The notes beneath the pieces were generated by a model, which did not search any database, was not told where the DNA came from, and saw nothing but the letters and a program-made list of their open reading frames with translations. A program made the translations under genes and the position numbers. 64,000 nt of DNA from the sequence record MW394390.1; one strand, written 5' to 3'. The DNA is from Klebsiella phage vB_KpM_FBKp34. Shown piece after piece: positions 12,578-27,016 of the stretch; the first letter of the stretch is position 1; every line of letters starts with the position of its first letter.

Positions 12578-12603
12578 GGTTGATCTTTATGGTCAACCTT
12601 GTT
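12578..12603 (+). terminator. hairpin GGTTGA-N9-TCAACC + T-rich tail
   Basis: 6-bp stem directly after stop of 12160..12567. Confidence 0.45.
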
Positions 12604-12811
12604 ATAGTCATATTAAGCAATAGGTGCTGATGCTGCACGAAACAACCACCAGTCTTGCCCGTGATACGGGTGAACTAAAGTTCATCACATTTGTGACAAA
12701 CCTGTTCGTTATTTATATTATTAGATTTATTTAATCAGCGTAGCGTATATCTTATTTTACTAATGATTAATAGTCAAATTAACCACTAATTAATAGTCAA
12801 TTTCACTAACC

Positions 12812-13083: not shown

Positions 13084-13488
13084 CTGCTCTAAAACAATTA
13101 CTGAATGATAATGCTTCTCATTCAAGGTTTATAACAGGTCAACCGCCTGTTTGATAACTGTTACACGTAGGATCCTCGCGCTTTCTGTCGGCTCTGCGAC
13201 ATCGCGCAATCAATAACAAATACGAATTATTATCAGATTTAGAATGATTCTCATTCATGATCAAGTGAGAATAAATCTCATTTGCGTTTACGCATAAGAA
13301 AAATTTTTTGAAAAGGTGCTTTGTCAAGTGAAAAGAGAAAATCTTGTTTAGTATTTTAATGGATTTGCACACATAAATTTTATTAAAAGTAAAGATATTT
13401 ATAACATTATCCATTATATTCTTGACAAATCATTATCGAACATATTTTATTACGTAGCAATTGATTGCAAGTCCAATCATTCAGAAAA

Positions 13489-13666
13489 CGAACATATATA
13501 GAGTAAAGGGAGACTTAAAGCTTTCAGTTGAAAGCTTTTAGGATCACTCTCTATATTGTTCGATAATTTATAAGGTGAGATATTCTCTCATAATGTTCTC
13601 AAGCGAACAATATAGAGAGGAACTCACGACCAAAGGGAGAGTGTTACTTTACTCTATATATGTTCG
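13489..13666. promoter_or_regulatory. nested inverted repeats: 20-bp arms 13489-13508/13647-13666 and 16-bp arms 13547-13562/13604-13619 (shared CGAACAaTATAGAG core); internal AAAGCTTTC-N5-GAAAGCTTT hairpin and TGAGA-N5-TCTCA palindrome at 13576-13590
   Basis: perfect complementarity verified by eye. Confidence 0.7.
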
Positions 13667-14289
13667 CTCCTCGTTAAAACTTCGTCGCGAACATTTTTAT
13701 TTGAAAAGAGAAATTAAAGTTTTTATTCTATTATTTAAAGCAAATATATTTAAATCTTTAAATGAATATAAAAGCATTCTCTCTATAGAATATGCAATAG
13801 ATCTTGATTTAATATTTAATGTTTTAATAATGTGATCTGTTTTCAATAGTGCCATAAATACCTCCTATTAGTTTTAATTGTTTATAATAACATAATTTAA
13901 ATAAATATTGCAATCGGGAACCGTTATTTATTGCTTCGCAATTTATAAGTAATGAATGATTAGTTTTCTAATTGGTTTATAGTTTATTATATAGAATTGA
14001 ATAGAGTTAGACAGATTAGAGTTAATGAGAATTGATCTTACTTATGCAATAAAGTGAATAATTATACATACTTAGATGAGAATAGTTATTATTTAACTTA
14101 TTTCAATCAAAAGTTGTAAAATAAGCTCTGTTTTATATAGTCATATAGGCTTTAAAGCTCCTGTAATCCATTCTAAGAGGTGCAAGTCTTACCCCTGGCA
14201 CTTGGTCAACCTTGCTTAGAAAACCTCATAACGCGATTTATTCATTTTTCTGCTGTGAATGATTTCAATAGATAAAAGCTATCAAGGAT

Positions 14290-14322
14290 CAGGAGACAAA
14301 AGAAAGGGCGCTTTGTGCGCCC
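14290..14322 (-). terminator. rho-independent terminator (GGGCGC-ACAAA-GCGCCC then T-rich on minus strand)
   Basis: downstream of 14339..14707. Confidence 0.6.
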
Positions 14323-14338
14323 TATTTGAAATGGTGTT

Positions 14339-14707
14339 TTATTTGTATGCTGGATCGTTTGTAATGTCGATCCAATGAGATAAATCAATAATTCCTTTTT
14401 CTTTCATCTTCTCTAACAAGCGTTCTGCGCGGGTAGTGTTATTGATATAATAATCAAAGGTTTCTCCGGTTTCTTCGTCCTCTAACGTTTCGATTCGACC
14501 GATGATCACGCGATCCATGGCGTAAACTTTGCCAGTGTACCAGTTTGTAAGATGAATTTCACACTTATAATCATCTGACCCGCTGTCAATGGTTACAACG
14601 TCGATTAAATCACCTTTGAAAACAGAAAGTGACCACATCGGATCATGATCTACTACGCCGCCAAAATCTTTACCTTTGATAGTAGTATTCAGATTGATGA
14701 TAGCCAT
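14339..14707 (-). CDS. hypothetical protein
   Basis: 122-aa ORF, protein-like composition. Confidence 0.5.
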   Translation of the reverse strand: MAIINLNTTIKGKDFGGVVDHDPMWSLSVFKGDLIDVVTIDSGSDDYKCEIHLTNWYTGKVYAMDRVIIGRIETLEDEETGETFDYYINNTTRAERLLEKMKEKGIIDLSHWIDITNDPAYK

Positions 14708-14775
14708 TTTCGTTTATCCTATGTAAGTTTATTGTCGGGGCGCTTATCACGCCCTGGATTGTTAGTCTATTTTAA

Positions 14776-15144
14776 TTAGAATGTTGCACGTTTAATTTTT
14801 AATACTTCTACTGTATAACCTAAACTTAAATACAGTTCTTTAACTTCTTTATAACGTCCAGGAAAATTACCGCATTTCATTGCAAAATCTGCGTTATTAG
14901 TCAATCGCCATTCTTTTGATCCTGGTGCTGTGCGGATATCTGATACAAACAAACGTTTGTTGTTTTTAGTCACAATCACCAGATCTTCGCCTGTTGGTTC
15001 CTCTTCGATCTCTACTACAGAATAGAAATTAACACGGGCACTATTAAGAATACGGCAAGCCTCTTTTGCTTGCTCTTTTGTTGTAAAACGTGAATCTAAA
15101 ATTGTTTCTTTAAAAGTTAAAGTAGTGCATTTAATAGCAAACAT
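14776..15144 (-). CDS. hypothetical protein
   Basis: 122-aa ORF. Confidence 0.5.
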   Translation of the reverse strand: MFAIKCTTLTFKETILDSRFTTKEQAKEACRILNSARVNFYSVVEIEEEPTGEDLVIVTKNNKRLFVSDIRTAPGSKEWRLTNNADFAMKCGNFPGRYKEVKELYLSLGYTVEVLKIKRATF

Positions 15145-15508
15145 GTTAGTTACCTCGTTAAGTTAATTTCGTATTCCTGCCCTACGAGATAAATAATAGC
15201 ATAACTGATATTTCATGCAAGAGTAGATTTGTAAAGAACTGTAAAGAAAACAATCATATGTGAATAGCACACTATAAAATCTTTGTCAAATTTATTTTCA
15301 AGTCCTGTATAAACATACATACCTTTAAAACGCTCTAGAATCGATTTTAAGCGCTTTTGTGTCCGGGCAATACCCTAGCTCATAAACAAATAGATCTCAC
15401 TAATAAGAATTTTTCTCATTTAGAAATTAAAGTTGGCACGATGTTTGTTGCGAGTAATTCTCATTTGAAGGGAGGCGTCCAGGTTCGGTTAGCTTCGCTG
15501 AATGGCAG

Positions 15509-15528
15509 GCAGGTTCGGTGTTTGTCTC
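15509..15528. repeat. 20-bp element GAGACAAACACCGAACCTGC (minus orientation); inverted partner at 25162-25181
   Basis: exact 20/20 match in inverted orientation; adjacent AACCGAACCTG half-copy at 15481-15491. Confidence 0.7.
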
Positions 15529-15559
15529 CCCCTGCATCAGGTGCCATAGCCTATAAAGA

Positions 15560-15593
15560 TAATAGCAAAACCAGGGCAAAAAGCAAGCCCTGG
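15560..15593 (-). terminator. rho-independent terminator (CCAGGGC-loop-GCCCTGG + TTTTGC on minus)
   Basis: downstream of 15605..15892. Confidence 0.6.
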
Positions 15594-15604
15594 AATTGTA
15601 AAGA

Positions 15605-15892
15605 TTAAATCTCTTCTTTGGCATTATTGAACTTTGAATCACCATAACCATCGCGATAATGGATATTTTCCCTTTGAGATTCATCAAAAGGTTTACCGTT
15701 TACAAAATCATTCCATCCATCATCGTAATATTTCATATTTACGGGGTTTATTTCTTCAACCTTTTTGATCAGTGAGTCAACCTCTTTTAAGTGCTGTTGA
15801 AATTCTCCATTCGTTTCAAATGGTTCTCTCATATTACGGGGATAATCTTTTAACACTTTTAACAACAATGCTTTTTCTTTTACTGTAAACAT
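15605..15892 (-). CDS. hypothetical protein
   Basis: 95-aa ORF. Confidence 0.5.
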   Translation of the reverse strand: MFTVKEKALLLKVLKDYPRNMREPFETNGEFQQHLKEVDSLIKKVEEINPVNMKYYDDGWNDFVNGKPFDESQRENIHYRDGYGDSKFNNAKEEI

Positions 15893-15902
15893 AATATTTA
15901 CC

Positions 15903-16088
15903 TCAAAAATAATAAACGTCGTCAGTTACATGGATGATAACCTGATTAGATTTAAAGTCAACCGAAAATTCACTTGCATAATAGTTCGCTGTTTCCGTTG
16001 TAATAGTGTGCGCCCCTATCGGATTGATGGGGGATGTGATTTCCTCTAACGTGTTGCCCTTTGCACTTACGATCAGAATGTTGAACAT
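15903..16088 (-). CDS. hypothetical protein
   Basis: 61-aa ORF. Confidence 0.4.
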   Translation of the reverse strand: MFNILIVSAKGNTLEEITSPINPIGAHTITTETANYYASEFSVDFKSNQVIIHVTDDVYYF

Positions 16089-16133
16089 GTTATCACCTCA
16101 AAGGTGGGGAACCGTAGCGGCTCCCCTTATTGG

Positions 16134-16493
16134 TTAAATGGCTGTTTCCAGGAGTTTAGCCAAATCACTAATTAAAGCGTAAGGCTTGACAATTTCGAAT
16201 TTACCGGATTTAAAGATTTCCGCTTTCATTTCGTCATGTTCTGCCTTTGTCAAGGTGAAACGCCCCTCGCTATGGTGCGCCCAATATTTACCGCTTACGC
16301 GCTCAAAAGATACGCTTTCAATGGTAATAATATTCATCATTTCCGCCGCTACGCTCTCTACGCGAACCATCAGATCAGCTAACGAGGATACGCACACCGC
16401 GCCGCTTTCGTTGTATGTGCCATTGTTGGCATCAGTGAAAGTGATCAGGGATTTACCTTCTTTGATGGTTACTGGAAAAGTTACGTTTTTCAT
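16134..16493 (-). CDS. hypothetical protein
   Basis: 119-aa ORF preceded on minus strand by promoter and 5'-UTR hairpin GCGGGA-N5-TCCCGC. Confidence 0.5.
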   Translation of the reverse strand: MKNVTFPVTIKEGKSLITFTDANNGTYNESGAVCVSSLADLMVRVESVAAEMMNIITIESVSFERVSGKYWAHHSEGRFTLTKAEHDEMKAEIFKSGKFEIVKPYALISDLAKLLETAI

Positions 16494-16544
16494 GATGTTA
16501 CCCTTTGAGGATTGAGCGGGAGAAGTTCCCGCCCTTCAAAGTAA

Positions 16545-16572
16545 CTATAGCAAACGGCGATCAGCGTTGCAA
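16545..16572 (-). promoter_or_regulatory. sigma70-like promoter TTGCAA-N17-TATAGT
   Basis: reads on minus strand toward 16134..16493. Confidence 0.5.
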
Positions 16573-16578
16573 GCGTTT

Positions 16579-16962
16579 TTAAAAATAAATAAAACCATCG
16601 TCGCCAACATAAACAGATAATTCTTTATATTCAGTAGCGCGATCTGTTAATGCATCACCGATAACGCCATAACCACGATCCCAGAATCCAGCCCCGTGAC
16701 CGTTTCGGGTAAGCCAAAAGTCATGCCCAGCGCTAGAATAACCATCTAGATTTTTATAAACCTGAGATAACAAAGCTTTGTTATCTCGAATAAAAGAGAG
16801 ACAATCTTTTCTTACTTGATCCATAGTGCAATCAGCTAAAGGGTAATTTACTAGATTGCCTATTTCGTTTTCTTCTCCACCTTCAGAATAGCTACTCCAT
16901 AACATACATTCAATGTAACCATTGATAAAGGCGCTTTCATTCATACCATAAAATTCTAACAT
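16579..16962 (-). CDS. hypothetical protein
   Basis: 127-aa ORF. Confidence 0.5.
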   Translation of the reverse strand: MLEFYGMNESAFINGYIECMLWSSYSEGGEENEIGNLVNYPLADCTMDQVRKDCLSFIRDNKALLSQVYKNLDGYSSAGHDFWLTRNGHGAGFWDRGYGVIGDALTDRATEYKELSVYVGDDGFIYF

Positions 16963-17184
16963 GATAACTATTCCTGTTAACGGTTTTTGTGAGAGTAAAC
17001 ATAACCATTCTGACCAGATCCGGCGCGGCTCTTACGTTTGCCTTTCTTGCCTTTACCGCCAAATAGAGCGCTTAAAACAACAAAGATAATAAAAGCTGTT
17101 ACAAGTCCCATTTTCTTCCCTCCGGTTAATTTTCTTTCTATAAAGATAATAACACAGAGAGATATTCTGTTTTAGCAAAAAGTG

Positions 17185-17535
17185 CTATTCATCACCACAA
17201 AATTCTATTCCACTGGATGACCCACAACGGTTACAATAGTAATCATTGCAATCGTGATCACGCTTAACATTATCAGGGTTAAGGCTTGCAATTGCATCCT
17301 GTAAAGCGAAAATTGTTTCCAGGTCGGCGCGGTTTTCCAAGATGAAACTATGACTTTTCATTTTATCACGAATAAAATTTCCAGTATGATCACTATGCAA
17401 ACGGTCAACAAAAGCCCCTAGCAGGTTTTCGCCATGCTCTTTAAGTTTGGCATAACCTTTGCACTCAATCACGCCGTGAGCGCTTTTAATGGTGTAAATT
17501 GTTACCGCTTCAATGTTGAATTTTTCCGCTGCCAT
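17185..17535 (-). CDS. hypothetical protein with Cys-rich C-terminus
   Basis: CNDYYCNRCG...CGDE tail. Confidence 0.45.
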   Translation of the reverse strand: MAAEKFNIEAVTIYTIKSAHGVIECKGYAKLKEHGENLLGAFVDRLHSDHTGNFIRDKMKSHSFILENRADLETIFALQDAIASLNPDNVKRDHDCNDYYCNRCGSSSGIEFCGDE

Positions 17536-17538
17536 TGT

Positions 17539-17832
17539 TTAGCCCTCTAAGGTTGGCAAGTGTTCCGGTGTAGGCTCTAACATAACACGGGTTACATACG
17601 CAAGCAAGCTATTTATTGCCCCTTTTGTTGTATTATATTTCTCTGCAATCTCTGCTGGCAACATGCCGCCATATTTATGTAAGGCGCGGATCTCTAACAC
17701 CTGCTGATCTGTCCAAGTTGTTTTGCGCCCTCGCATATCTTGCTTAGGCTCTTTTCGTTTGTACGGTTCAACACTGATCGCCATATTAACGAGGGATTGA
17801 CGTAATTTTAAATTTTTGTTAGATTGTAACAT
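17539..17832 (-). CDS. putative HTH DNA-binding protein
   Basis: basic N-terminus plus helix-turn-helix-like LPAEIAEKYNTTKGAINSLL. Confidence 0.4.
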   Translation of the reverse strand: MLQSNKNLKLRQSLVNMAISVEPYKRKEPKQDMRGRKTTWTDQQVLEIRALHKYGGMLPAEIAEKYNTTKGAINSLLAYVTRVMLEPTPEHLPTLEG

Positions 17833-17877
17833 TTTTCACCCGTTTAACATTGGCGGCATTGCTGCCGCCTTTGTAGC

Positions 17878-18177
17878 TCATCGTTTCATAAAGTCAATAG
17901 CGCTTGATAATTTATTTACGCCTTGCTTTATTTGTTCTGAGATAAGATAATAATTCTTATCTTTCATTGGTGCAAGCATTATTTTCTTAATCTCCGCTTT
18001 ATATTTCGCGTTAACCTTTGCACCCATATTGTAACCGCTGATTGCCTTCTCAATGGTGGCTAACTGCTGGTTATGATTCTTATAAATGAATTCAGGTTTA
18101 AACTCCTGGCGCTGGCAAGCGATCAAAGTGTTGTTGGCAATAGCGCGTAAAGTTGAAAGGAGTTGTAAAGGTTGCAT
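17878..18177 (-). CDS. hypothetical protein
   Basis: 99-aa ORF. Confidence 0.45.
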   Translation of the reverse strand: MQPLQLLSTLRAIANNTLIACQRQEFKPEFIYKNHNQQLATIEKAISGYNMGAKVNAKYKAEIKKIMLAPMKDKNYYLISEQIKQGVNKLSSAIDFMKR

Positions 18178-18267
18178 GTTAAATCCCCGTTATGTGTCGG
18201 GAACCATTCCCGCCCACAAAACAAGGATAGCAAAACGCCCCAGGGAGATCAAGCCCCAGGGCGCAAA

Positions 18268-18516
18268 TTAATTTAATCCGGCATTGTCCCATTCGTAGCG
18301 GTCGCCATGTAATTTCGTACCGCAACAATCACATTTGGCAATAGAAAAACCTTTATTCTCGCCCACTGATCCATATTTATAATGGCTTGTCAAGCGCTGC
18401 GCATGATATTTTATATGCTCTTCCTGCTCTTCCAGTACATCAGGCGGTAACTCCCCATTAGACAGGTAAAGGGCGCAATCCTCGCAGATCAGGATGTTTT
18501 CGATTTTCTCGCTCAT
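18268..18516 (-). CDS. zinc-finger protein (CxxC...CxCC)
   Basis: ICEDC ... CDCCG. Confidence 0.45.
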   Translation of the reverse strand: MSEKIENILICEDCALYLSNGELPPDVLEEQEEHIKYHAQRLTSHYKYGSVGENKGFSIAKCDCCGTKLHGDRYEWDNAGLN

Positions 18517-18545
18517 GAGTTATTCTCTTTTGTTGGTGTAGCGCC

Positions 18546-18575
18546 ATTATGCGCCCTTATCGGGCGCGTTGTCAA
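18546..18575 (-). promoter_or_regulatory. conserved promoter unit C: TTGACA-N18-CATAAT with GCGCCC/GGGCGC hairpin in spacer
   Basis: about 45-bp unit also at 18840-18895 and 23540-23600. Confidence 0.55.
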
Positions 18576-18577
18576 AT

Positions 18578-18802
18578 TTATTTAGCTTTACGCTTCATAA
18601 CCTTGATCGCTTTAATGCCTTTTTGTTCGAAAAATTCCGGGCTTCGCAGTTGCGCAGCGCTGCTACGGCTTTTCACTTTATTAGACAATACACCGTAGTA
18701 AGTACCATCAGGATATTGACCGATAAAGTAATGATCTTGGATGCCATACTTTGCATCACCTGCTTTTTCAATCGCTGTTGCCAGTCTGTCTAAATCGAAC
18801 AT
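18578..18802 (-). CDS. hypothetical basic protein
   Basis: minus-frame is more protein-like than the antisense track ORF 18569..18793. Confidence 0.4.
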   Translation of the reverse strand: MFDLDRLATAIEKAGDAKYGIQDHYFIGQYPDGTYYGVLSNKVKSRSSAAQLRSPEFFEQKGIKAIKVMKRKAK

Positions 18803-18853
18803 AATGGAATCTCTCTCATTTAGCGGGGAACCGCTCCCCGCTCTATGTGATGA

Positions 18854-18882
18854 ATTATGCGCCCTTTCCTTGGGCGCGTCAA
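18854..18882 (-). promoter_or_regulatory. conserved promoter unit A: TTGACG-N17-CATAAT, spacer = CGCCC-AAGGAAA-GGGCG hairpin
   Basis: 38-bp identical to unit B. Confidence 0.55.
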
Positions 18883-18891
18883 CTATTATTT

Positions 18892-19365
18892 TTAGTAGTT
18901 TGTCACATTTTCAGGGTTAAGGAATGGGAAGTGATGATCCAACGTTAGGCCGTCCCATTGTGATAAATTGTGCTCCGCTGTACGCTTCACCGCTAAACCC
19001 TGTTCAATTTTAGCGGCGGCGTTGTCGATCAACTCCTGGCACATAGTACGCGCTTTCATCAGGAAAGCGGATTCACCAGGATAAGACTGTAAATGATCCA
19101 TTTCCTCAAGTGCTGACATATAATCACGAAATGCTTCGCTTGCTAATTGTTGACCATCGCCAAATTTTGAATGATGGTAAAAAAAGCTTGTTTTATCTAA
19201 ATAGCGCTCTTGACATTGAACCCGATCAGTATAGGTAATTACACCGTTTTCAAGTTCGATTTGACCAGATTCAAAAGTTTTAACAACCGTTAACAGCTTA
19301 CGATCATTGAAACAATCAATAACTTTTTGACCTACGCAGAATTTATTCATGATAGCCATTCTCAT
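18892..19365 (-). CDS. hypothetical protein
   Basis: 157-aa ORF; TTGACT-N16-TATGAT upstream (about 19405-19440). Confidence 0.5.
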   Translation of the reverse strand: MRMAIMNKFCVGQKVIDCFNDRKLLTVVKTFESGQIELENGVITYTDRVQCQERYLDKTSFFYHHSKFGDGQQLASEAFRDYMSALEEMDHLQSYPGESAFLMKARTMCQELIDNAAAKIEQGLAVKRTAEHNLSQWDGLTLDHHFPFLNPENVTNY

Positions 19366-19846
19366 CTGTTGACGTTACGTTATTGTCTCGCCCTATGTGA
19401 TAAATCATAACAGATTGGGCCTGGTAGTCAATAGGCAAAACATAATCTTTACATTATTCAGAAAAATGAATAGAAATGCACCTGTATGCAAATAATCACA
19501 CGATGAAACTAAATTTAAGACGCTTTTAGCGTTTCGGGAAAAGTCAATACCCCGTAAAACGCTCTAAAACGCATTCTAAGAGGCTCTAACCGTTTGCCAT
19601 ACCCTTAATTATCTTGCGCGAGAAGTCCTTAAATTCACTTTTTTGCATAACGCAAAAATGAAAAATAATTCTGTAACTAGTTGACGTTTTAAATTTTGTA
19701 TGTTTTTACTAATTTCATTGTATCTTTTAAAAATACACCTAACATCATACCAGGTGCACGACCTTTTGACACTTTGTCAAGTGGTAAAATATTTCCTTTA
19801 TTATCGATCTCTCTTACAATAATTTTTGGAACATCGTTTTTATTTA

Positions 19847-20164
19847 TCATGCTACACTCTCATGTTGACAAGAAAAAACATCGTTCACAATATCACTAAT
19901 GACATAGAATAGATCTTTCGGGGGAATATTTTTCCCGCCATCCTGGGCTAATAATTGATTGTCTTGTGAAAGTTCATAATTTAAATCAAAACCGCCTTTT
20001 TCTTTCTTTGTAGTAATAGTTAATAATAGACCTTTGTCAACTATTCTTTCGCTTGTGAATCTAAAATTCATAGTATTAGAAAATGACCGAATGTCAACTA
20101 AAACATGATCTTTACATTCTGAAAAGAAAAAAGAATCATTCGCTTTCATTAGATTTTGCCCCAA
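19847..20164 (-). CDS. hypothetical protein
   Basis: 105-aa ORF. Confidence 0.4.
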   Translation of the reverse strand: MGQNLMKANDSFFFSECKDHVLVDIRSFSNTMNFRFTSERIVDKGLLLTITTKKEKGGFDLNYELSQDNQLLAQDGGKNIPPKDLFYVISDIVNDVFSCQHESVA

Positions 20165-20409
20165 CGTTTAAAACCTGTATTGGTATTAGATTTTAATTCA
20201 GTTTTAAGACGTTTGCAACGGCTTTTCATTGCAAAATGAAACGGGGTAACAATTGTTGATCCGGTGTTGGTGTGGATCTTCATTACATTTTGTTTCATAG
20301 TCAGACCTTTAAAAGTTAGAATAGCATAAATAATAGTTACAGGTGAAATAATTAACAGACCTATTAAATCAAAACAGAATCTATCATTTAAAATATTTAA
20401 TGTTTCCAT
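20149..20409 (-). CDS. small membrane protein
   Basis: hydrophobic segment LIGLLIISPVTIIYAILTF. Confidence 0.4.
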   Translation of the reverse strand: METLNILNDRFCFDLIGLLIISPVTIIYAILTFKGLTMKQNVMKIHTNTGSTIVTPFHFAMKSRCKRLKTELKSNTNTGFKRWGKI

Positions 20410-20676
20410 TTTGTAAATCTCTCTTTGTTTGCCTGATTAAGAGAATAGATCAACAAAATAGAAAAAGCAAGAAAAATTTAAAACAAATTTAAAGCCCCTA
20501 GAATCCATTCTAAGAGGCTTTAATCTTTCTCAATAGGTTTCCTTATTCTTCCCAATTAAAACGCTTGCGTTGCGGCTTGTTGCGTTTATTGCTACGCTCC
20601 CGGCGGTCGTCTGTCTCATTCCATTCTAAACGCTGTTTACTGCTCTTAATCTTTTCAAAATTTTTGCTTTGCATCT

Positions 20677-20967
20677 TTAATCTTCCAATGTTTGTTTAAT
20701 ATAATTTTCTTCGTGATATTTTTCTTCTGTTACTTCGTCTTCACCGCCTTGCGCAATAATTTCAAATGAAATTATTTCGTTTAAAACTTTCTTTTGTCTT
20801 AAACCTATTTCAAAGATCATTGCTTGCTCGTGGCACATAACAGAAGAAATTAAATAATCACCTTTGTTATCAAGTATTTTGTAACAGTAATAAGTTTTAT
20901 AAACTGGATCATTTAATACCCGTTTAATAAACTTACTTAATACATAAGTTTTCGCCTGTTGTAACAT
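20677..20967 (-). CDS. hypothetical protein
   Basis: 96-aa ORF. Confidence 0.45.
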   Translation of the reverse strand: MLQQAKTYVLSKFIKRVLNDPVYKTYYCYKILDNKGDYLISSVMCHEQAMIFEIGLRQKKVLNEIISFEIIAQGGEDEVTEEKYHEENYIKQTLED

Positions 20968-20984
20968 AAAGCTACCTTTAAGTT

Positions 20985-21377
20985 TTAAGCATTTGTTTCA
21001 ATTACAGAATATACCTCTAAACCTAAATATTTTGCAAGTTCTTCTAATAATGTTTGTTGATCGCACCAGCTAGGGACATCAATATTAAATTTTCTTGCTG
21101 CCTGAGAAATAGCTGCTTCAGATCTATCATAACCATAACCGCCAGCCTTTGCACCTACTTGGCCATATAAGCCTAAAATAGGGGAATGAATCCAGAAACA
21201 AACATAATTAGTTGCTTTTGTTGCATAGTGGCGGATCTCCGCAAATGATTTAATTTGATTATCATGTAACCCAACAAGTGACAACGATTTATAATAGCCG
21301 TTTTCTTTTCTAAATCCTTTCAAGGATTCAGTAGATTCAACAACCATTTTTGAAAAGTCAAAAGTAGATTTAGTCAT
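20985..21377 (-). CDS. hypothetical protein
   Basis: 130-aa ORF. Confidence 0.5.
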   Translation of the reverse strand: MTKSTFDFSKMVVESTESLKGFRKENGYYKSLSLVGLHDNQIKSFAEIRHYATKATNYVCFWIHSPILGLYGQVGAKAGGYGYDRSEAAISQAARKFNIDVPSWCDQQTLLEELAKYLGLEVYSVIETNA

Positions 21378-21455
21378 TTTAAATATTCCTAGTTAGGGTT
21401 ATTTCTTTTCTCTATGCCCTATATCTTAACAGGGCATAACGAAAAGTCAAATAAA

Positions 21456-21800
21456 TTATAAATCTTTTTTACGGTCTACATCAGAGCAATGATTATAAAC
21501 TACAATACCAGATTCTCTAAGAGCACGTGATAAATAGCAGTAGTCCTCTAATTTTTCATCTAATATAACAACTTCTTTAAATTCTTTTAAAGCTACAGAA
21601 TCATAATGATCCCCATAGCCATATTCAAAAGGCACATTAACAATATTAATAATCTGTCCGTTAACTTCTACGTCAACTTTTAAAGAAAAGTATGTATTAC
21701 CATATGAGCGTTGAAACCATCGGCGTGCATTAATATGTACGCATTCAACATCCGACAATTTAACAAGACTTTTTTCTGCTTTATTAATATTTTTAGCCAT
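21456..21800 (-). CDS. hypothetical protein
   Basis: 114-aa ORF. Confidence 0.5.
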   Translation of the reverse strand: MAKNINKAEKSLVKLSDVECVHINARRWFQRSYGNTYFSLKVDVEVNGQIINIVNVPFEYGYGDHYDSVALKEFKEVVILDEKLEDYCYLSRALRESGIVVYNHCSDVDRKKDL

Positions 21801-21802
21801 TT

Positions 21803-21952
21803 TTTAATTTCCTGCTTCAATGTTTGTGTAAGTAATAATAACACAAACTAAACCAATTGCAAGCGTTGTAAGACATAAAACAAAACATTTTCTTTTTTCT
21901 GTTTTATTGATGAAACGGCTTGCTTCCATCATCATTTTGTGTTTATGATTCA
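21803..21952 (-). CDS. small membrane peptide (49 aa, not in ORF track)
   Basis: MNHKHKMMMEASRF...LAIGLVCVIITYTN hydrophobic core. Confidence 0.3.
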
Positions 21953-22008
21953 TCTTGTTACTCTTTTGTGGTTATATAATGACAGGTTATCTGTTAACAA
22001 CAATAGTA

Positions 22009-22359
22009 CTAAATGATAGTTAGTGAACTTTCAGGATATCCGTTCAAAATTGCGCCACTAAAGCGATGATAAAATGATACATTAACCGAATGTTCAAATG
22101 TACCGGGAGTACTGGATAATAGATCGCGCTCCATTTTGTTACGTTCAACCACCGAATTTTTGTCAAACGACAAAGAATATAATGGAGTACCATCACAATC
22201 GCGGGTATGTTCTACAACAAAAAGGCGTAAAAATTTTCCACGATCATCGCTTTCCACTTCAACTATAGTGTAAAGTGGGATATTATGTTTCAATGCTTCG
22301 TTGTTTTCACGAACCGTCTTGCCATTTTCTTCAACCATATCAGCCAGATTCATAAACAT
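22009..22359 (-). CDS. hypothetical protein
   Basis: 116-aa ORF. Confidence 0.5.
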   Translation of the reverse strand: MFMNLADMVEENGKTVRENNEALKHNIPLYTIVEVESDDRGKFLRLFVVEHTRDCDGTPLYSLSFDKNSVVERNKMERDLLSSTPGTFEHSVNVSFYHRFSGAILNGYPESSLTII

Positions 22360-22448
22360 GATAGTATTCCTTAAAAGTGGGAGAGGCTATCTCTCCCTAT
22401 GAAAAACATTATACAATACTCAGCTTACTTTGCAAGTACTTTTAATAA

Positions 22449-22706
22449 TTACAATGCAATGATATGATCGATTGCATCCTGAACAGTGTAAAAATCGATC
22501 TCTTCTTTAGTAGAAAGATTGGTAACAAGTACAGGAGTTGGGCCAGCGGTGTTCATACCTTTTGCAGAATGAATCGCACCTGTACTGGCGGAAATTTCAA
22601 AACCTTTGTAATTGAACACAACGCATCCATGAATTTCGTCGCCGTAGTTGCTGGAAAAATCCATACCCAAAATTTTCATACCTGTATAATTATGTAAAAC
22701 TTTCAT
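22449..22706 (-). CDS. hypothetical protein
   Basis: 85-aa ORF. Confidence 0.45.
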   Translation of the reverse strand: MKVLHNYTGMKILGMDFSSNYGDEIHGCVVFNYKGFEISASTGAIHSAKGMNTAGPTPVLVTNLSTKEEIDFYTVQDAIDHIIAL

Positions 22707-22751
22707 GTGTGACCTCTATTTTGCTTAAGTAAGCATCATATCAGATGAAAT

Positions 22752-22973
22752 TTATTTTTCAACTACCAATTGATACCATTTTTCAACATTAGTAAATACA
22801 ATTGTTTTATCATCTCGCACACTCATCAGCATACAAGGTGATAACATACGTTCGGCGGCTTTACAATCTGCATAAACTGTGCTGATCTCGCCTGGCTTGC
22901 TATCATCCGCCGGGAAAGTATCATTGATAAACACGTTGCCAGCCACCAGGGAAATAATTGCAAATGTAACCAT
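22752..22973 (-). CDS. hypothetical protein
   Basis: 73-aa ORF. Confidence 0.4.
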   Translation of the reverse strand: MVTFAIISLVAGNVFINDTFPADDSKPGEISTVYADCKAAERMLSPCMLMSVRDDKTIVFTNVEKWYQLVVEK

Positions 22974-23048
22974 TTTATCACCTCGTTAGATTGTTTGGTT
23001 TCTCTCTTCAATGCCTCTTATTATAAAGAGGCATCACAGAAAGTCAAC

Positions 23049-23213
23049 TTATTTTTTCAGGCTCAAAGTACCTTTACCGTCAACATGAGACAAGCCAGGG
23101 AAGATCCAGCCGTTTTCGCCTTTCACTGGCGCTTTCAGCTTCGCGCCTGTATTGGCGCTATTCACTTTACGGGCTACGTTGCGAGCGGCTTCGCGAGTAT
23201 TCATTGTGATCAT
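23049..23213 (-). CDS. small basic protein (about 55 aa, not in ORF track)
   Basis: MITMNTREAARNVARKV...; aaagagagaaaatt RBS like neighbouring genes; the antisense track ORF 22995..23261 is less plausible. Confidence 0.35.
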   Translation of the reverse strand: MITMNTREAARNVARKVNSANTGAKLKAPVKGENGWIFPGLSHVDGKGTLSLKK

Positions 23214-23290
23214 AATTTTCTCTCTTTGTTTAGTAGCGATAACTATTACCGCTTTGATTAACAGTTTACTATCTTTTAGATGTTTGTCAA

Positions 23291-23533
23291 CTATCGAACC
23301 GTAATTTTTTCACCTTTTACAATAATGTAATAACTCCCCGCATTGCTGTATACATCGCAATATACACGGCGCAACCGCCCTTTATAGTTGACTTTATGGC
23401 TTGTTTCAATCTTTTTGCCGTAGCCGCTAGCGGTTTTTGATAAGCCTTTTCCGTGCCACCATAACGGGGCATGGATCAAAGTTGCTTCAACGTCAGTGTG
23501 ATCGTAGCCGTTGCCAATTAATACAGTTGCCAT
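23291..23533 (-). CDS. hypothetical protein (start at internal MATVLIGNG)
   Basis: the track ORF's N-terminal extension overlaps promoter unit B, so I shortened it. Confidence 0.45.
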   Translation of the reverse strand: MATVLIGNGYDHTDVEATLIHAPLWWHGKGLSKTASGYGKKIETSHKVNYKGRLRRVYCDVYSNAGSYYIIVKGEKITVR

Positions 23534-23564
23534 AATTTTTACTCTCTTCTGTTGGTGTAGGGGA

Positions 23565-23593
23565 ATTATGCGCCCTTTCCTTGGGCGCGTCAA
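23565..23593 (-). promoter_or_regulatory. conserved promoter unit B: TTGACG-N17-CATAAT with hairpin spacer
   Basis: identical core to unit A. Confidence 0.55.
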
Positions 23594-23596
23594 GTA

Positions 23597-24133
23597 TTAT
23601 TGCGCGTTTTCAACAATACTTTTCAACACATCCACACCTTCCAGGAGGTCACGCGCCGCCTTTGTTGCCTCTTCCAGGGCTTCGGCTTCTCCCTCGTGCT
23701 CTTTCCACACTTCCTGGGCGACGTCTAACAATTGCCCCTCATCATCATATGAATAATCGAAACCGCAACCGATCACCGCACCATCTAACAGGGTATGAGA
23801 TCCGGCGGTAGCGTCAACCGTGAAATAATAATCACTTGCGTTAATATCGCGTGACAATTGCCGCTGTAAACTTTCATAGGCTTCCCGGCTAGGATTTTCT
23901 CGACCCTGTGCAGCATAGTAGCTTGCCAGTTCCGCGAGGGTAGTTTGTTGGGGAATGGCATATTTATAACTATTCCACCCGGCGTCGGCATTTTTGATAG
24001 TCACGCCGCCCTCGTGCTTATCGGTCATTTTCCATTGATCATCGAATCCATCATAACATTGTGCGCATACAACATTAACAGTAAAGTCGATGTTATTACG
24101 GGAGAAGTTGAAAGTTTCAATGATGTCAGACAT
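23597..24133 (-). CDS. hypothetical acidic protein
   Basis: 178-aa ORF, acidic C-terminus. Confidence 0.5.
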   Translation of the reverse strand: MSDIIETFNFSRNNIDFTVNVVCAQCYDGFDDQWKMTDKHEGGVTIKNADAGWNSYKYAIPQQTTLAELASYYAAQGRENPSREAYESLQRQLSRDINASDYYFTVDATAGSHTLLDGAVIGCGFDYSYDDEGQLLDVAQEVWKEHEGEAEALEEATKAARDLLEGVDVLKSIVENAQ

Positions 24134-24187
24134 AATTTTAATCTCTTTGTATCGGCGCGGGAACCATTCCCGCTGCCTATGAAGTGA

Positions 24188-24215
24188 ATTATACGTTACT
24201 GTGCGAATCTGTCAA
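24188..24215 (-). promoter_or_regulatory. sigma70-like promoter TTGACA-N16-TATAAT followed by 5'-UTR hairpin GCGGGAA-CCA-TTCCCGC (24157-24173)
   Basis: near-consensus hexamers. Confidence 0.55.
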
Positions 24216-24222
24216 GCGGTTT

Positions 24223-24444
24223 TTATTCGATATCTAAAAGTTTTTTCAGGCGGTTGATCTTCGCTTCGCGCTGCTCATGAGTGATCACGCTCATTTCAAC
24301 CAGGGAGTCAAGGAAAGCACAAACAATACAATAACCGTTAAAATCGGCTTCTCTTTCCATCTCACAAAAGCCATTAACAAGCACTTGGATCATATCATCG
24401 CCCGTTACCGCATGTTTATAAACTACGACGTGTAATGTTGCCAT
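24223..24444 (-). CDS. hypothetical protein (start MATLHVVVYKH)
   Basis: internal Met chosen; upstream part of the track ORF is GC-rich non-coding. Confidence 0.4.
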   Translation of the reverse strand: MATLHVVVYKHAVTGDDMIQVLVNGFCEMEREADFNGYCIVCAFLDSLVEMSVITHEQREAKINRLKKLLDIE

Positions 24445-24636
24445 TTTCTTTTCTTCCTGGTGTGCGGTGCGCCTGTCGCCCCGCTCTCGCTCTATGTGAT
24501 ACACTTTAAACCCTGCCGATCCTGGCGTCAATACCCTGGCGCAAATAAATCAGAAAAAAGTTTTCTTGCGTTATTCCTTGGATGGTGTATCTTTATACGT
24601 AAGCCGCCACGGTGGAGGCATAAAGAGGAAAGCAAC

Positions 24637-24939
24637 ATGATCACAAATACCCTACATTTAATGCACGTTTTAAGCTGGCAAGGTGGAACCGTTCACCAGG
24701 TAGCCAGGGCAACGGGTTTAACAGTGAGCGAGATCCTCGACCTGGACACGATAACGGCGCAACATGCCGATCCCTATAAAACGGGCTATCTTGCCGTAAA
24801 ACACGGCTTGCCAAGTGTGGCGGCGCTGGGCTTACAGAAGTATGATCCGGCGGCGTATGGTGATCAGTCTCACCTTTTCCGCGCACGCCTGGTGTCGTAC
24901 TGGCGCGGGGCGCTGGATGCACAAAAAGCCAAAAAATAA
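24637..24939 (+). CDS. hypothetical protein (only + strand gene in island)
   Basis: MITNTLHLMHVLSWQGG...; GC-rich. Confidence 0.4.
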   Translation: MITNTLHLMHVLSWQGGTVHQVARATGLTVSEILDLDTITAQHADPYKTGYLAVKHGLPSVAALGLQKYDPAAYGDQSHLFRARLVSYWRGALDAQKAKK

Positions 24940-25161
24940 ATTTGACAGCCTGGCAAAAGCTGGGCTATACTTCCCCTATACAGAAAAGTGACAGCCACCC
25001 CACGGCGTAAAGGCGGGGCTAACGTACCAGGTGCGGGGCCAGGTCGGAAGGTGAATCGCCGGTAGCTCGCCTTAAGTAGTTTTGTAAAGAAGTGTAAAGA
25101 TGCTTGATCCTGGTGTTGGTTGTGTTATTATTTCTACATGGCGAGGGGTAACGGGAATCGC

Positions 25162-25181
25162 GAGACAAACACCGAACCTGC
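25162..25181. repeat. 20-bp element GAGACAAACACCGAACCTGC, inverted partner of 15509-15528
   Basis: exact match. Confidence 0.7.
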
Positions 25182-25203
25182 GCGTCATTCTGCAAATGAG
25201 AAT

Positions 25204-25275
25204 GAGTCTCATTTTGGTTTGTAGATGAGAATAATTATCATTCAACATATCAAACGAGAACCATTCTCATTTGAG
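25204..25275. promoter_or_regulatory. three tandem TGAGA-N5-TCTCA-type palindromes (operator-like array)
   Basis: AAATGAGAATGAGTCTCATTT, GATGAGAATAATTATCATTC, GAGAACCATTCTC; same motif at 13268-13282 and 13576-13590. Confidence 0.5.
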
Positions 25276-25327
25276 GATCTTCCCAAGAAACTGCCTGGAT
25301 AAAAACATGGGTATGACGTGAACCAGA

Positions 25328-25560
25328 AAATTATGGATTTTGAAAATAGGGATGTCCAAAATGCTACAAATTTTTCCCGATTTGCCACAAAAATTTTCAT
25401 AAAATTTAAAATAGTTTGAATATTAAATCTTTTGAATAAAAATCTGTATCTTGCTATACTACATTGCGTTGTAAATATCACTTTTAAAAACATGGAATTG
25501 ACTTTTCACTAAAAAATTATGGATTTTAAAATTAGAAGTGTCAAAAATGCTAGATCGAAC
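25328..25560. repeat. two copies of about 40-bp direct repeat AAAATTATGGATTTTgAAAATAGgGATGTCcAAAATGCTA (25328-25370, 25516-25558)
   Basis: 37/40 identity; each begins a tiny ORF MDF... Confidence 0.6.
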
Positions 25561-25704
25561 ATGGTTTTAACATAAAACTTTATTTAAATTGTGTGTGCAT
25601 CTGTTATAAAGAAAGCTCAACTATAATTTCTTAAAGATGTTAAGTCAAGCCTTCTCTTGTGCAGATTTTTAAGTCAAAATATAAAAGGTCTGATCAATAA
25701 AATA

Positions 25705-25800
25705 TCACAGTTCTGAGTTGCTTTCAAAAACAGCCTTCGCCCACCCACGTGGAGTTAGAGAACGTAATATTTTAGTTTTCTTACCCTTTCCACCAGTTAA
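25705..25800 (-). pseudogene. duplicated 3' end of the C5-MTase-like gene (orphan C-terminal fragment)
   Basis: translates LTGGKGKKTKILRSLTPRGWAKAVFESNSEL versus intact gene C-term KLGGKSEKTKIIRSLTPRGFSRAVYESNKG. Confidence 0.65.
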
Positions 25801-25811
25801 CAATAAATAGA

Positions 25812-26318
25812 TTACCAAATCTCCCTTTGTATTACTGCTTCTTCAAACGTCTCAAAATTTTTACAAAGCATCTTATTTTCAACTCTCATTCTTGCCCTCC
25901 ACGGCTTCTTTTTATATTTAGTATCTATAGAAACACCGCGCCGATTTGAAGATTTGTTGGTTTTATTGGGAATTGAGCCACTACCTTTCCTTATGTTCTT
26001 GCTCATATCTATCGCTTGTAGATTTTCAATTCTATCATCAGAGATACCGCCTGTTTCTTTTATAGATTTAATATGGTCTATGATACAACCTTCAGGTACT
26101 TCTTTATTAAATAACAACCAAACTACAACATGTCTTAAGTAGTGCCTATTTTTATAACTAAAGTGCCAATAACCTCCATTCTTACGAGCACCTACCTCTC
26201 TACCTTTTACAGCGGCTGGGAGATTATAACAACGCCCAGAAAATGTATCTATCTTCCAATATAATCTACCTTCTTTATACTCAACTATTTCTTCCCAATT
26301 AATCTTAGTGTCTTCCAT
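25812..26318 (-). CDS. HNH homing endonuclease with C-terminal AP2 domain
   Basis: IDHIKSIKETGGISDDRIENLQ HNH motif; GVSIDTKYKKKPWRARMRV...FETFEEA AP2-like. Confidence 0.75.
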   Translation of the reverse strand: MEDTKINWEEIVEYKEGRLYWKIDTFSGRCYNLPAAVKGREVGARKNGGYWHFSYKNRHYLRHVVVWLLFNKEVPEGCIIDHIKSIKETGGISDDRIENLQAIDMSKNIRKGSGSIPNKTNKSSNRRGVSIDTKYKKKPWRARMRVENKMLCKNFETFEEAVIQREIW

Positions 26319-26323
26319 TCCTT

Positions 26324-27016
26324 TTATCCTTTATTACTTTCATATACTGCACGTGAAAACCCTCGCGGGGTAAGTGAACGTATTATTTTTGTCTTTTCAC
26401 TCTTTCCACCTAACTTACTGTATTGGCTAGAATACCCGATGGGCATTGCAACCGGATGCTTGGTAGGTAATATAAAACCATTTCCAACCCATAAACATGT
26501 TTTCTTCGGGTATGCGTCTTGTGCTGGAATATAATCTGGATAGGCGGGGTGAATATCACTATCTTTCAAATAACCTCCATATTCATAAGGGTGAAAAATA
26601 AAATCCGGTTTTCGCCAAAATGTAGACAAGACACTTACAGGGTTTTCTATCATATATGGTACATCATATTTATTAGCTAATGTCTCAGCAGCGCGGGCGA
26701 TTTCTACTGCTTCTTCCTGGAATTGAGGGTTTTCGAGTCTTTTTTGTGCAAAATGGGCTGCTCCTGAAACTGCCAAGTCTGTGCATGGTGGAAAAGCAAA
26801 TATGATCTCTGGTGTTGGTAGATCTGGTACATACCCATTAAAGATCCAAGCATTGATAAACTTAATATTTTTGTGCGAAACTCTTGCTCCATATCTTTCA
26901 TATGTTCCATGGTCTGCTGCGTCGGCATTAATACAAAATACTTTGTTACCGTTTTCTGCCCATGGTATACCCATATATCCAGATCCATCAAACAGGCAGT
27001 AGATGACTTTATTCAT
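26324..27016 (-). CDS. short DNA cytosine-5 methyltransferase-like protein (PCT variant of PCQ motif)
   Basis: motif I FDGSGYMG, motif IV FPPCTDLAVSG, motif VI MIENPVSVL in canonical order; only 230 aa. Confidence 0.5.
   Translation of the reverse strand: MNKVIYCLFDGSGYMGIPWAENGNKVFCINADAADHGTYERYGARVSHKNIKFINAWIFNGYVPDLPTPEIIFAFPPCTDLAVSGAAHFAQKRLENPQFQEEAVEIARAAETLANKYDVPYMIENPVSVLSTFWRKPDFIFHPYEYGGYLKDSDIHPAYPDYIPAQDAYPKKTCLWVGNGFILPTKHPVAMPIGYSSQYSKLGGKSEKTKIIRSLTPRGFSRAVYESNKG

Follow-up and report, generated by a model that had tools for sequence, protein, structure and literature searches.

A probable fast-turnover early region of small genes set between promoter and stem-loop cassettes in Klebsiella phage vB_KpM_FBKp34

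A 64,000-nucleotide stretch of the Klebsiella phage vB_KpM_FBKp34 (sequence record MW394390.1), referred to here as the window, contains between positions 14290 and 24950 a block of 28 small minus-strand genes, g1 to g28 (43-178 aa), together with one plus-strand gene. We consider it likely that this block, the island, is a hyperplastic early region of fast turnover in which small accessory genes lie between cassettes that join a promoter to a stem-loop, of the type described as promoter-early stem-loops (PeSLs) in the T4-like phages RB49/phi1, PST/T4 and nt-1/KVP40 (Arbiol et al. 2010, PMC2839356; Comeau et al. 2014, PMC4122927). Such a PeSL-like layout is of a known kind, and has hitherto not been described as such in the Stephanstirmvirinae. 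The original prediction for this DNA had proposed a horizontally acquired array of about 25 small moron-like genes, each with its own promoter, leader hairpin and terminator; the gene number was close to the 28 counted, and the block does prove to be an accessory region of variable content, made up of small genes and rich in sigma70-type promoters that are presumably early. The cassette architecture, the enrichment of its hairpins, their structural covariation, the chimeric junctions and the way in which composition follows origin can be read directly from comparison of the sequences. The records closest to the island are the large Klebsiella myoviruses KP13-26, KP2025, phi1_175008, KP13-16 and FKP3 of the Stephanstirmvirinae, referred to below as the relatives, none of which covers more than 47% of it.

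Promoters were called by consensus matching to the sigma70 hexamers (score out of 12; features are on the minus strand unless stated). Promoter-like sites in 12000-27000 number 94 compared to 51.9 +/- 8.6 in shuffles, and minus-strand sites scoring at least 10/12 are densest at 16-28 kb, with 17 in 12 kb. All five promoters named in the original prediction are present, namely TTGACA-N16-TATAAT at 24215..24188 (12/12), TTGACG-N17-CATAAT at both 23593..23565 and 18882..18854, TTGACT-N16-TATGAT at 19431..19404 and TTGCAA-N17-TATAGT at 16572..16545. A promoter of at least 9/12 was found in the upstream intergenic DNA of 12 of the 28 genes; these 12 are preceded by an AT-rich stretch that holds the upstream stop codon, the 20 nt upstream of the -35 averaging 74% A+T, and g23 has a promoter-like site inside g22. 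Eight genes (g9, g11, g12, g14, g15, g21, g23 and g26) lie at most 17 nt from the upstream gene or overlap it, and three have a hairpin upstream without a promoter. The genes other than the 12-13 with a strong promoter are grouped in operons of two or three. With 12-13 strong sigma70-like promoters and eight genes coupled to the gene before them, the proposal of one promoter per gene does not hold. The AAGAGA-type ribosome-binding site (RBS) that was said to follow each promoter is present in 8/28 island genes, but is not clearly commoner there than among the backbone genes (12/63). We infer that early transcription is driven by sigma70 from about a dozen starts.

Strict (perfect) GC-rich hairpins occur at 5.10/kb in island intergenic DNA, compared to 0.25/kb in island coding DNA and 0.28/kb in the rest of the window, an enrichment of about 18-fold, and the GCGCCC/GGGCGC and GCGGGAA/TTCCCGC hairpins singled out earlier are real and far above chance. 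The hairpins take up distinct registers relative to the promoter. One type fills the spacer (TTGAC-GCGCCC-N5-7-GGGCGC-ATAAT) upstream of g3, g17 and g18; a second holds the -10 hexamer in its loop, at g5 and g10; in a third a T-tailed terminator (18264..18236 and 15593..15571) carries the -35 in its loop; and the commonest, the leader type, follows a C-A-TAG(G/A)G start motif placed 6-8 nt past the -10, at g1, g2, g4, g7, g17, g19 and g24. The earlier claim of a stem-loop in each leader therefore applies to about seven promoters, but three have the hairpin in the spacer and two have it across the -10. Among the window, KP13-16 and KP13-26, the stems of the -10-in-loop hairpins are wholly different (ATGCCTCTT/AAGAGGCAT, ATAGCGCC/GGCGCTAT, ATGGCTGT/ACAGCCAT and ATGCCGT/ACGGCAT) with TATAAT kept in the loop.

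The hairpins might instead be ordinary intrinsic terminators, or relics of mobile repeats resembling repetitive extragenic palindromes (REP) or miniature inverted-repeat transposable elements (MITE), that lie near promoters by chance. Four of them are canonical terminators, and GC-rich hairpins in an AT-rich genome would suit such an origin, but about 14 other hairpins examined have no T-tail and interlock at fixed registers with the hexamers of promoters, neither terminal inverted repeats nor target duplications accompany them, and they have no match in E. coli genomes or plasmids, which makes this explanation highly improbable. A T-rich tail was found on four hairpins only (20516..20495, 18264..18236, 15593..15571 and 14323..14305), which bound the blocks g1-g12, g13-g18, g19-g26 and g27-g28. 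The independent terminators originally placed at 14290-14322 and 15560-15593 are thus T-tailed hairpins as described, but there are four in all and not one per gene; a terminator scan gave 16 hits, not above the 10.6 +/- 3.8 expected by chance. No tRNA was found by ARAGORN as a cause of the GC-rich patches, and Rfam gave nothing at gathering thresholds and only chance-level matches at relaxed E-values.

The leader element, CA-TAGGGCGGGAATGGTTCCCGCC, begins about 3-4 nt past the predicted start site, with the start motif CATAG preceding its hairpin. The window and five relatives together gave 18 distinct leader hairpins, with 95% of their cells paired and 4/8 pairs altered on both sides; the covariation score was reached by 0/500 shuffles, and slid registers fall to 42-63% paired. 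The two outer pairs, which are free of pre-selection, also covary (C-G/G-C 13:5 and G-C/C-G 13:4). Leader stems that change by compensatory substitutions point to a structure and not to a duplex recognition sequence. In the GenBank record of phage phAPEC8 (JX561091), 'ATAGGGCGGCAATGGTGCCG' and its variants, directly downstream of sigma70-like promoters, are annotated as 'putative promoter determined with PHIRE', and the motif (R)TAGGGCGG(S)AATGGT(K)CC occurs 20-40 nt ahead of the starts of small genes, in the arm of the genome that also carries it in phAPEC8. The PHIRE repeat is the same leader element, which is therefore conserved across genera, and it shows a further compensatory pair (GGGAA/TTCCC against GGCA/TGCC). 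Hairpin-pattern scans of a genome collection were too unspecific to map the distribution of the element.

The sequence conservation of stem, loop and CATAG among Klebsiella and E. coli phages of the subfamily would also be expected if (R)TAGGGCGG(S)AATGGT(K)CC were a phage-specific promoter or protein-binding signal, read by the host polymerase in modified form or by a factor of the phage. The leader motif presumably has a superficial likeness to the start regions of T7-class promoters (CACTATAGGGAGA). Every copy, however, lies at the expected sigma70 start site, the compensatory stem changes point to structure, and no phage RNA polymerase gene was seen among the ORFs (open reading frames) scanned, a limited and not an exhaustive test; we regard a phage-specific signal of this kind as quite improbable. 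A T7-class promoter reading of 'CACATAGGG' was set aside on the same observations, the motif always following a sigma70 -10. Because every copy is 6-8 nt downstream of a good sigma70 -10, the leader element is most simply the initially transcribed region.

A transcribed hairpin could in turn serve as a cis-regulatory RNA, either for antitermination of the nut/boxB kind or as the operator of a translational repressor or endoribonuclease that times early expression. The conserved loop (A)ATGGT, the position of the hairpin at the 5' end of many early units, and the read-through that most downstream hairpins would require all fit such a role, but no boxA or boxB consensus and no recognisable N, Q, RegA or RegB homologue was found among the scanned proteins, and recombinational homogenisation can explain the likeness among copies, so that we give this possibility only a slim chance. 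The lambda-type nut site was rejected as a candidate, no boxA (CGCTCTTA) or boxB pattern being present in 14000-25700. Somewhat less doubtful, though still unlikely, is that the CA-TAGGGCGGGAATGGTTCCCGCC hairpin, with its stem register and loop conserved in Klebsiella and E. coli Stephanstirmvirinae, is a dedicated signal for a phage or host factor, as a regulatory tag of early mRNA or a preferred recombination site, perhaps together with the non-coding modules that bracket the island, with their invariant 40-nt block, palindrome arrays and a small HTH-like (helix-turn-helix-like) protein of the opposite strand. If so, early genes would be 'plug-and-play' throughout the subfamily.

The cassettes also mark the places where the island and its relatives part. 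The promoter 'CTTGACAGATTCGCACAGTAACGTATAATTCACTTCATAGGCAG' with the hairpin CGGGAATGGTTCCCG precedes g2 in the window, KP13-26, KP2025 and phi1_175008, the MKQRVM gene in FKP3 and the MKISE gene in KP13-16, and the MKQRVM gene of KP13-26 and KP2025 has a different promoter with the same hairpin. Four different genes stand behind the g24 cassette in the window, KP13-26, KP2025 and phi1_175008, and the g10 cassette alone (49-54 nt) is conserved in four relatives beside unrelated genes. Homology islands restricted to a cassette between unrelated genes were seen at 21402-21450, 18838-18891 and 23210-23290. Clusters of homology endpoints fall within 15 nt of intergenic DNA in 28/40 cases, compared to 12.0 +/- 2.9 at random (maximum 23 in 5000 trials). 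Insertions, replacements and duplications relative to KP13-16 follow the same boundaries: that phage is without g6-g7, an insertion that in the window reaches from the g5 stop codon to the g8 RBS; other sequence takes the place of the g3-g2 segment, the exchange running from the g4 promoter to the g2 leader hairpin; and KP13-16 carries an extra gene between two copies of the -10-in-loop (g5-type) cassette. Within the island, the g3 cassette is chimeric, its promoter and spacer hairpin being 97% identical to those of g17 (a 39-nt repeat at 23563-23601 and 18852-18890) and its leader and RBS 87% identical to those of g18; repeat families, D1-D3, occur among the cassettes. Since the cassettes are repeated and conserved while the intervening genes differ, they would act as portable homology patches. 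They appear from these alignments to be exchange points between related phages, with homologous recombination at the cassettes during co-infection as the mechanism of shuffling that we infer.

Base composition and origin agree with such exchange. The window has 35.6% GC with a strand-consistent GC skew, and the island averages 38.6% compared to 35% in the flanks. The GC content is mostly 40-46% at 16.0-19.4 kb and 38-54% at 22.7-25.25 kb (exceeding 40% beyond about 23.0 kb); between these blocks, at 19.5-22.0 kb, lies an AT-rich core of 27-37%. At third codon positions (GC3), 30 backbone ORFs gave 0.269 +/- 0.043 with a maximum of 0.369, which 12-13 of the 28 island genes exceed; g7-g11, g13-g15, g23, g26 and g27 are backbone-like. 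A compositionally distinct block of higher GC was thus correctly seen in that the mean is raised and about half of the genes deviate, but the excess is patchy and encloses an AT-rich core. The flanking 24 kb are 96.6% identical to KP13-16 across 73% of their length and match KP13-26 and FKP3 over 2-4% only, so that the backbone is KP13-16-like and of low GC; the KP13-16 genome has 36.1% GC, and the other four relatives have about 42% in the 15-21.5-kb loci fetched around the island equivalent. By these similarities the source phage is a low-GC, phi92/phAPEC8-like Klebsiella myovirus of the Stephanstirmvirinae. The GC-rich modules of the island have 84-92% identity with the 42%-GC lineage (KP13-26, KP2025, phi1_175008 and FKP3), and the AT-rich core at 19869-21962 is 95% identical to KP13-16 only. 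Because modules and core have different sources, the island is a mosaic of at least three origins, and not a single acquisition. Its GC-rich genes were probably imported from the 42%-GC sister lineage, and horizontal acquisition is upheld for that part of the block, the modules being common to a lineage that matches so little of the flanks.

The products of the island genes are in keeping with an accessory region. PHROGs placed 19/29 of the genes in phage families, all of unknown function, g20 having only a weak match to a transcription-regulator family. Pfam matched only g12 (Phage_1_1, T7 gp1.1) and g28 (Phage_30_8, T4 gp30.8), families that both comprise uncharacterised early-gene products, and an NCBIfam scan gave nothing meaningful; the earlier statement that no protein is recognisable is accordingly confirmed as to known function. 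The same three scans gave no match to known anti-defence families. PDB sequence searches with g2, g23, g16 and g10 returned no significant match. The acidic g2 protein, which sits behind the sole perfect-consensus promoter, has about 80 homologues, many of them on phage contigs of 140-157 kb, and its AlphaFold2 (AF2) model, with a predicted local distance difference test (pLDDT) of 93.6, has no informative structural neighbour in the PDB.

These results bear on the model of the original prediction, a single acquired island of moron-like genes with promoter, hairpin and terminator for each gene, regulation as a unit and a role in anti-defence or host takeover. In its favor are the abundance of sigma70-like promoters and hairpins, the foreign composition of about half of the genes, and the small, uncharacterised proteins with homologues scattered over phage groups; Ksap2, a small Stephanstirmvirinae protein that activates KpAvs2 (PMC11564622), also indicates that small proteins of this subfamily can interact with host defences. 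An origin in at least three sources, one of them represented by the backbone-like core, contradicts however a single block, and one-gene units are contradicted in that fewer than half of the genes have a strong promoter of their own and terminators number four. Nothing supported regulation as a unit, no shared operator being found at the promoters. Similarity to prophages or plasmid leading regions was also absent at the nucleotide level, the island having no match in 5,426 complete E. coli genomes including their prophages or in the plasmids of PLSDB. We therefore attach little probability to this model as a whole, and find a role in anti-defence or host takeover plausible for early accessory genes.

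Several points weigh against a PeSL-type exchange region. The known carriers of PeSLs are T4-like, whereas the carrier here belongs to the Stephanstirmvirinae, and in KP13-16, the closest relative, the homologous region is shorter and is no richer in hairpins than the remainder of that genome. Any phage mosaic should have breakpoints at gene boundaries, since selection eliminates those that fall within genes, and the clustering of breakpoints is by itself no proof of recombination mediated by the cassettes. The leader hairpin set was gathered with a pattern demanding partial complementarity, and only its outer pairs are an unbiased test. Terminator activity is uncertain for most hairpins because they have no U-tract, and the activity of the promoters, their start sites, the attenuation and the stabilisation of mRNA are predictions from sequence.

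With these points taken into account, a region of small genes exchanged between PeSL-type cassettes is still the explanation that we favor, and it suggests the following course of events. Straight after infection, the host sigma70 RNA polymerase would fire at about 12 near-consensus minus-strand promoters, transcribing single genes or operons of two or three. Spacer, -10 and -35 hairpins would be transcribed only by polymerase arriving from upstream and, by analogy with PeSLs, would attenuate or terminate read-through and insulate the units, with the four T-tailed hairpins acting as presumed full terminators between gene blocks. The leader element would form a 5'-terminal stem-loop on the mRNA of its unit, most likely shielding it from 5'-end-dependent decay. 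Recombination between co-infecting relatives at the cassettes would then swap, insert or delete genes and leave expression intact.

Followed in the direction of transcription, the first unit is the g1 cassette (24445..24531) with TTGACG-N17-TAAAGT (24531..24503), the start motif CACATAGAG and a leader hairpin at 24484..24464, ahead of g1 (24223..24444; 73 aa, phrog_23268 of unknown function, GC3 0.43). The g2 cassette (24134..24215) joins its perfect promoter to a CATAGG start motif and the leader hairpin GGCAGCGGGAATGGTTCCCGCGCC (24177..24154), and is followed by g2 (23597..24133; 178 aa, pI 4.2, phrog_4190). In the g3 cassette (23534..23601) the spacer hairpin GCGCCC-N7-GGGCGC occupies 23588..23570 within TTGACG-N17-CATAAT, before g3 (23291..23533; 80 aa, phrog_3436). 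The g4 cassette (23214..23290), with TTGACA-N16-TAAACT, has the leader hairpin AGCGGTAATAGTTATCGCT (23253..23235), a compensated variant of GCGGGAA/TTCCCGC, and g4 (23049..23213) is a basic protein of 54 aa (phrog_13689, GC3 0.53). TTGACT-N16-TATAAT of the g5 cassette (22974..23047) has its -10 in the loop of hairpin 23035..23010, upstream of g5 (22752..22973; 73 aa, phrog_25390). The g6-g7 module (22009..22762), comprising g6 (22706..22449, 85 aa) and g7 (22359..22009, 116 aa), has promoters at 22762..22735 and 22435..22408 and a leader hairpin at 22397..22379.

The AT-rich core contains g8 and g9 (21456..21953), which are 3 nt apart and encode a membrane-like protein of 49 aa and a protein of 114 aa (phrog_6246). 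The g10 cassette (21378..21450), with TTGACT-N16-TAAGAT and the -10 in the loop of hairpin 21438..21413, leads the g10-g12 operon (20543..21377), whose products have 130 aa (phrog_7028), 96 aa and 43 aa (g12). At 20488..20517, 3' of g12, a terminator-like hairpin coincides with a 30-nt motif, CCTCTTAGAATGGATTCTAGGGGCTTTAAA, of which four diverged minus-strand copies are present (14151-14180, 15326-15351, 19555-19580 and 20488-20517), each past an operon end or within a long gap; the motif folds as a hairpin with G-U pairs followed by TTTAAA, and is kept in Salmonella phage GEC_vB_MG. The overlapping genes g13-g15 (19689..20409; 86, 100 and 53 aa) also lie in the core. The C-terminal half of g13 (20149-20409) belongs to phrog_8393: its last 49 aa, from an internal ATG at 20298, match a stand-alone gene (MKQRVMKIHTNTGST...) behind a cassette in relatives, and its N-terminal 37 aa resemble a membrane peptide, so that g13 is either an in-frame fusion or a gene with a mis-called start.

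Beyond the core, the g16 promoter region (19351..19431) carries TTGACT-N16-TATGAT with the start motif CACATAGGGCGAG and precedes g16 (18892..19350; 152 aa, phrog_25921). The g17 cassette (18803..18890) has both a spacer hairpin (18877..18859) and the leader hairpin AGCGGGGAGCGGTTCCCCGCT (18842..18822) with TTGACG-N17-CATAAT, upstream of g17 (18578..18802; 74 aa, phrog_21798), and the g18 cassette (18517..18582), with TTGACA-N18-CATAAT and a spacer hairpin at 18567..18551, is followed by g18 (18268..18516), a zinc-ribbon-like protein (CxxC...CxCC) of 82 aa with GC3 0.47. Upstream of g19 (18178..18264), the T-tailed terminator 18264..18236 encloses the weak -35 of TTGATC-N17-TATCCT and the leader hairpin GGGCGGGAATGGTTCCCGAC (18215..18196) comes next. 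The genes g19-g22 (16977..18177) encode 99 aa, 97 aa (g20, the weak HTH-like, or helix-turn-helix-like, match), 116 aa and 44 aa (g22, membrane-like), with a hairpin at 17869..17852 between g19 and g20, and g23 (16579..16962; 127 aa, acidic, phrog_1915) has its promoter-like site at 16980..16953. The g24 cassette (16494..16572), TTGCAA-N17-TATAGT with the leader hairpin GGGCGGGAACTTCTCCCGCTC (16534..16514), heads g24-g26 (15605..16493; 119, 61 and 95 aa), in which a hairpin at 16126..16106 precedes g25. The terminator at 15571..15593 (CCAGGGC-N9-GCCCTGG with a T-tail) holds in its loop the -35 of TTGCTT-N16-TATTAT, the same architecture as at 18264..18236. The last genes, g27 and g28 (14339..15144; both 122 aa, with a hairpin at 14757..14736), are followed by the final terminator at 14305..14323, AGGGCGCACAAAGCGCCCT and then TTCTTTTG.

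The plus-strand gene at 24637..24939 is the sole one in the 25-kb minus-strand arm and the GC-richest of the window (100 aa, 53% GC, GC3 0.56). Its HTH-like N-terminus, TNTLHLMHxLGWQGGTVHQVAxxTGLTVSEILDL, is conserved among phages resembling rV5 and phi92, and AF2 models the protein as wholly helical (pLDDT 87). It was rejected as a proven HTH regulator, since no PDB match had E < 2, and the likeness is a hint only.

Conserved non-coding modules bracket and split the island. The splitting module (15145-15604, about 440 nt) is 94-97% identical in KP13-26, KP2025 and FKP3, the three 42%-GC relatives that carry it, and about 77% identical in GEC_vB_MG, which belongs to the Vequintavirinae. It comprises an invariant 40-nt block, ATGGCACCTGATGCAGGGGGAGACAAACACCGRACCTGCC (15547..15508), a palindrome at 15402-15420, the 30-nt motif (15351..15326) and three promoter-like sites, among them the consensus matches at 15289..15261 and 15220..15193. 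The block 15395-15552 was rejected as a structured RNA, its fold z-score of -0.24 being no better than shuffles and Rfam giving no match. The palindrome, 19 bp long (AATGAGAATnATTCTCATT), has seven copies compared to 0.17 expected, all in non-coding gaps (13104-13282, 15402-15420 and 25195-25271), at sites that are syntenic in FKP3 and KP2025. Three copies 29 nt apart form an inverted repeat of about 90 nt at 25187-25278 (fold z = -3.5). We take the palindrome to be one base per half-site off the 7-1-7 consensus of the Fur box. A core AGAAT-N1-3-ATTCT common to both palindromic motifs was dismissed as not enriched (30 vs 21.5 +/- 4.6).

On the opposite (plus) strand, a paralogue of the invariant block, GAGACAAACACCGAACCTGC, lies at 25162-25181 within 25104-25215, behind its own TTGATC-N16-TATTAT site, and continues into the palindrome array; this region may be a small RNA or a protein-binding region. 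Direct repeats, TCTTTACAnTTCTTTACAAAnCTACT, with CTTTACA every 11 nt, occur at 15222-15247 and 25075-25100 and are 92% identical between the two non-coding modules. A promoter unit of the minus strand (TGGACA/TTGACA-N17-CATAAT) is tandemly duplicated at 25322-25366 and 25508-25552, 82% identical and 186 nt apart; these two copies and another promoter, at 25648, point towards the palindrome array and the plus-strand gene's 3' end.

Genes of the window lie on the plus strand until about 12.57 kb, those between 14.34 kb and about 37.4 kb are on the minus strand, and plus-strand genes then resume. Upstream of the island are genes for an HNH endonuclease and a UvrD-like helicase, from which we assign this arm to early functions and replication. 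The HNH gene (Pfam HNH_3, 25812-26318, minus strand) is directly upstream of the right-hand non-coding module, KP13-16 has a shorter unrelated segment in place of 25795-26906, and homing endonucleases could contribute to local mosaicism. At the other end, both transcription arms converge on a gene-poor, AT-rich zone of 1.7 kb (12570-14300; 22-34% GC) with nested inverted repeats at 13489-13515/13640-13666 and 13547-13562/13604-13619 and one small ORF with a strong Shine-Dalgarno (SD) sequence (13855..13697, 52 aa). The linear FKP3 record begins within the equivalent zone, which may serve for termination, as an origin of replication or for packaging.

If PeSL-type shuffling operates here, it would be a general route by which large virulent phages trade early accessory genes, and not a peculiarity of T4-like phages. 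Early accessory genes are likeliest to meet host defences and set host range, and the subfamily is used in phage therapy against Klebsiella and E. coli, for which the analysis yields a map of exchangeable units. It also reinterprets the 'PHIRE promoter' repeat and offers compact parts that combine promoter, insulator and leader.

In T4-like phages, PeSL cassettes comprise a stop codon, AT-rich stretch, promoter, stem-loop, SD and ATG (PMC4122927), and their reporter-tested stem-loops are subclassed by position, in the spacer, over the -10, over the -35, upstream of the -35 or downstream of the -10 (PMC2839356). The same parts, stop codon through ATG, were found here, as were the spacer, -10, -35 and after -10 registers. 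Shared as well are the gathering of similar repeated copies in a hyperplastic region of small ORFans, the tie to insertions, deletions and replacements between close relatives, and genes flanked by two copies. The island differs in that its commonest hairpin follows the predicted start, in the mRNA leader, and is strongly conserved in sequence across genera; and promoter and terminator activity and mini-circles were shown experimentally for PeSLs, whereas here such activities are predicted from sequence, the 39-nt repeats at 18852-18890 and 23563-23601 being available as substrates for recombination into mini-circles. In the literature searched, no report of PeSLs outside T4-like phages and no transcriptome study of Stephanstirmvirinae was found, and the rV5 paper describes many sigma70 promoters and has no cassette concept.

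Morons, in the concept of Hendrix and Juhala, are extra genes of lambdoid phages, defined in temperate phages and expressed from the prophage. Like them, the island includes additional genes that deviate in composition, bring their own promoter and separate genes that adjoin each other in relatives, as for g6-g7 compared to KP13-16. It differs in that the group is virulent, most units have no terminator of their own, and the whole region, not one insertion, is so built. The relatives are lytic myoviruses, and a scan of ten flanking ORFs at 25.8-37.4 kb identified neither an integrase nor a repressor.

The leader hairpin has two further counterparts. Stabilisers of the type found in the ompA 5' untranslated region are 5'-terminal stem-loops that stabilise mRNA, and the leader element likewise places a stable hairpin a few nt from a transcript 5' end, predicted here from the sequence of the start site. 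The PHIRE feature of phAPEC8 is the same element, ATAGGGCGG(C/G)AATGGT(G/T)CCG, placed immediately past sigma70-like promoters, with the start codons of small genes following about 20-40 nt later in the equivalent region. Its promoter label came from repeat detection alone, whereas the compensatory changes and the role as a recombination junction lead us to read it as a probable transcription start followed by a 5'-terminal hairpin.

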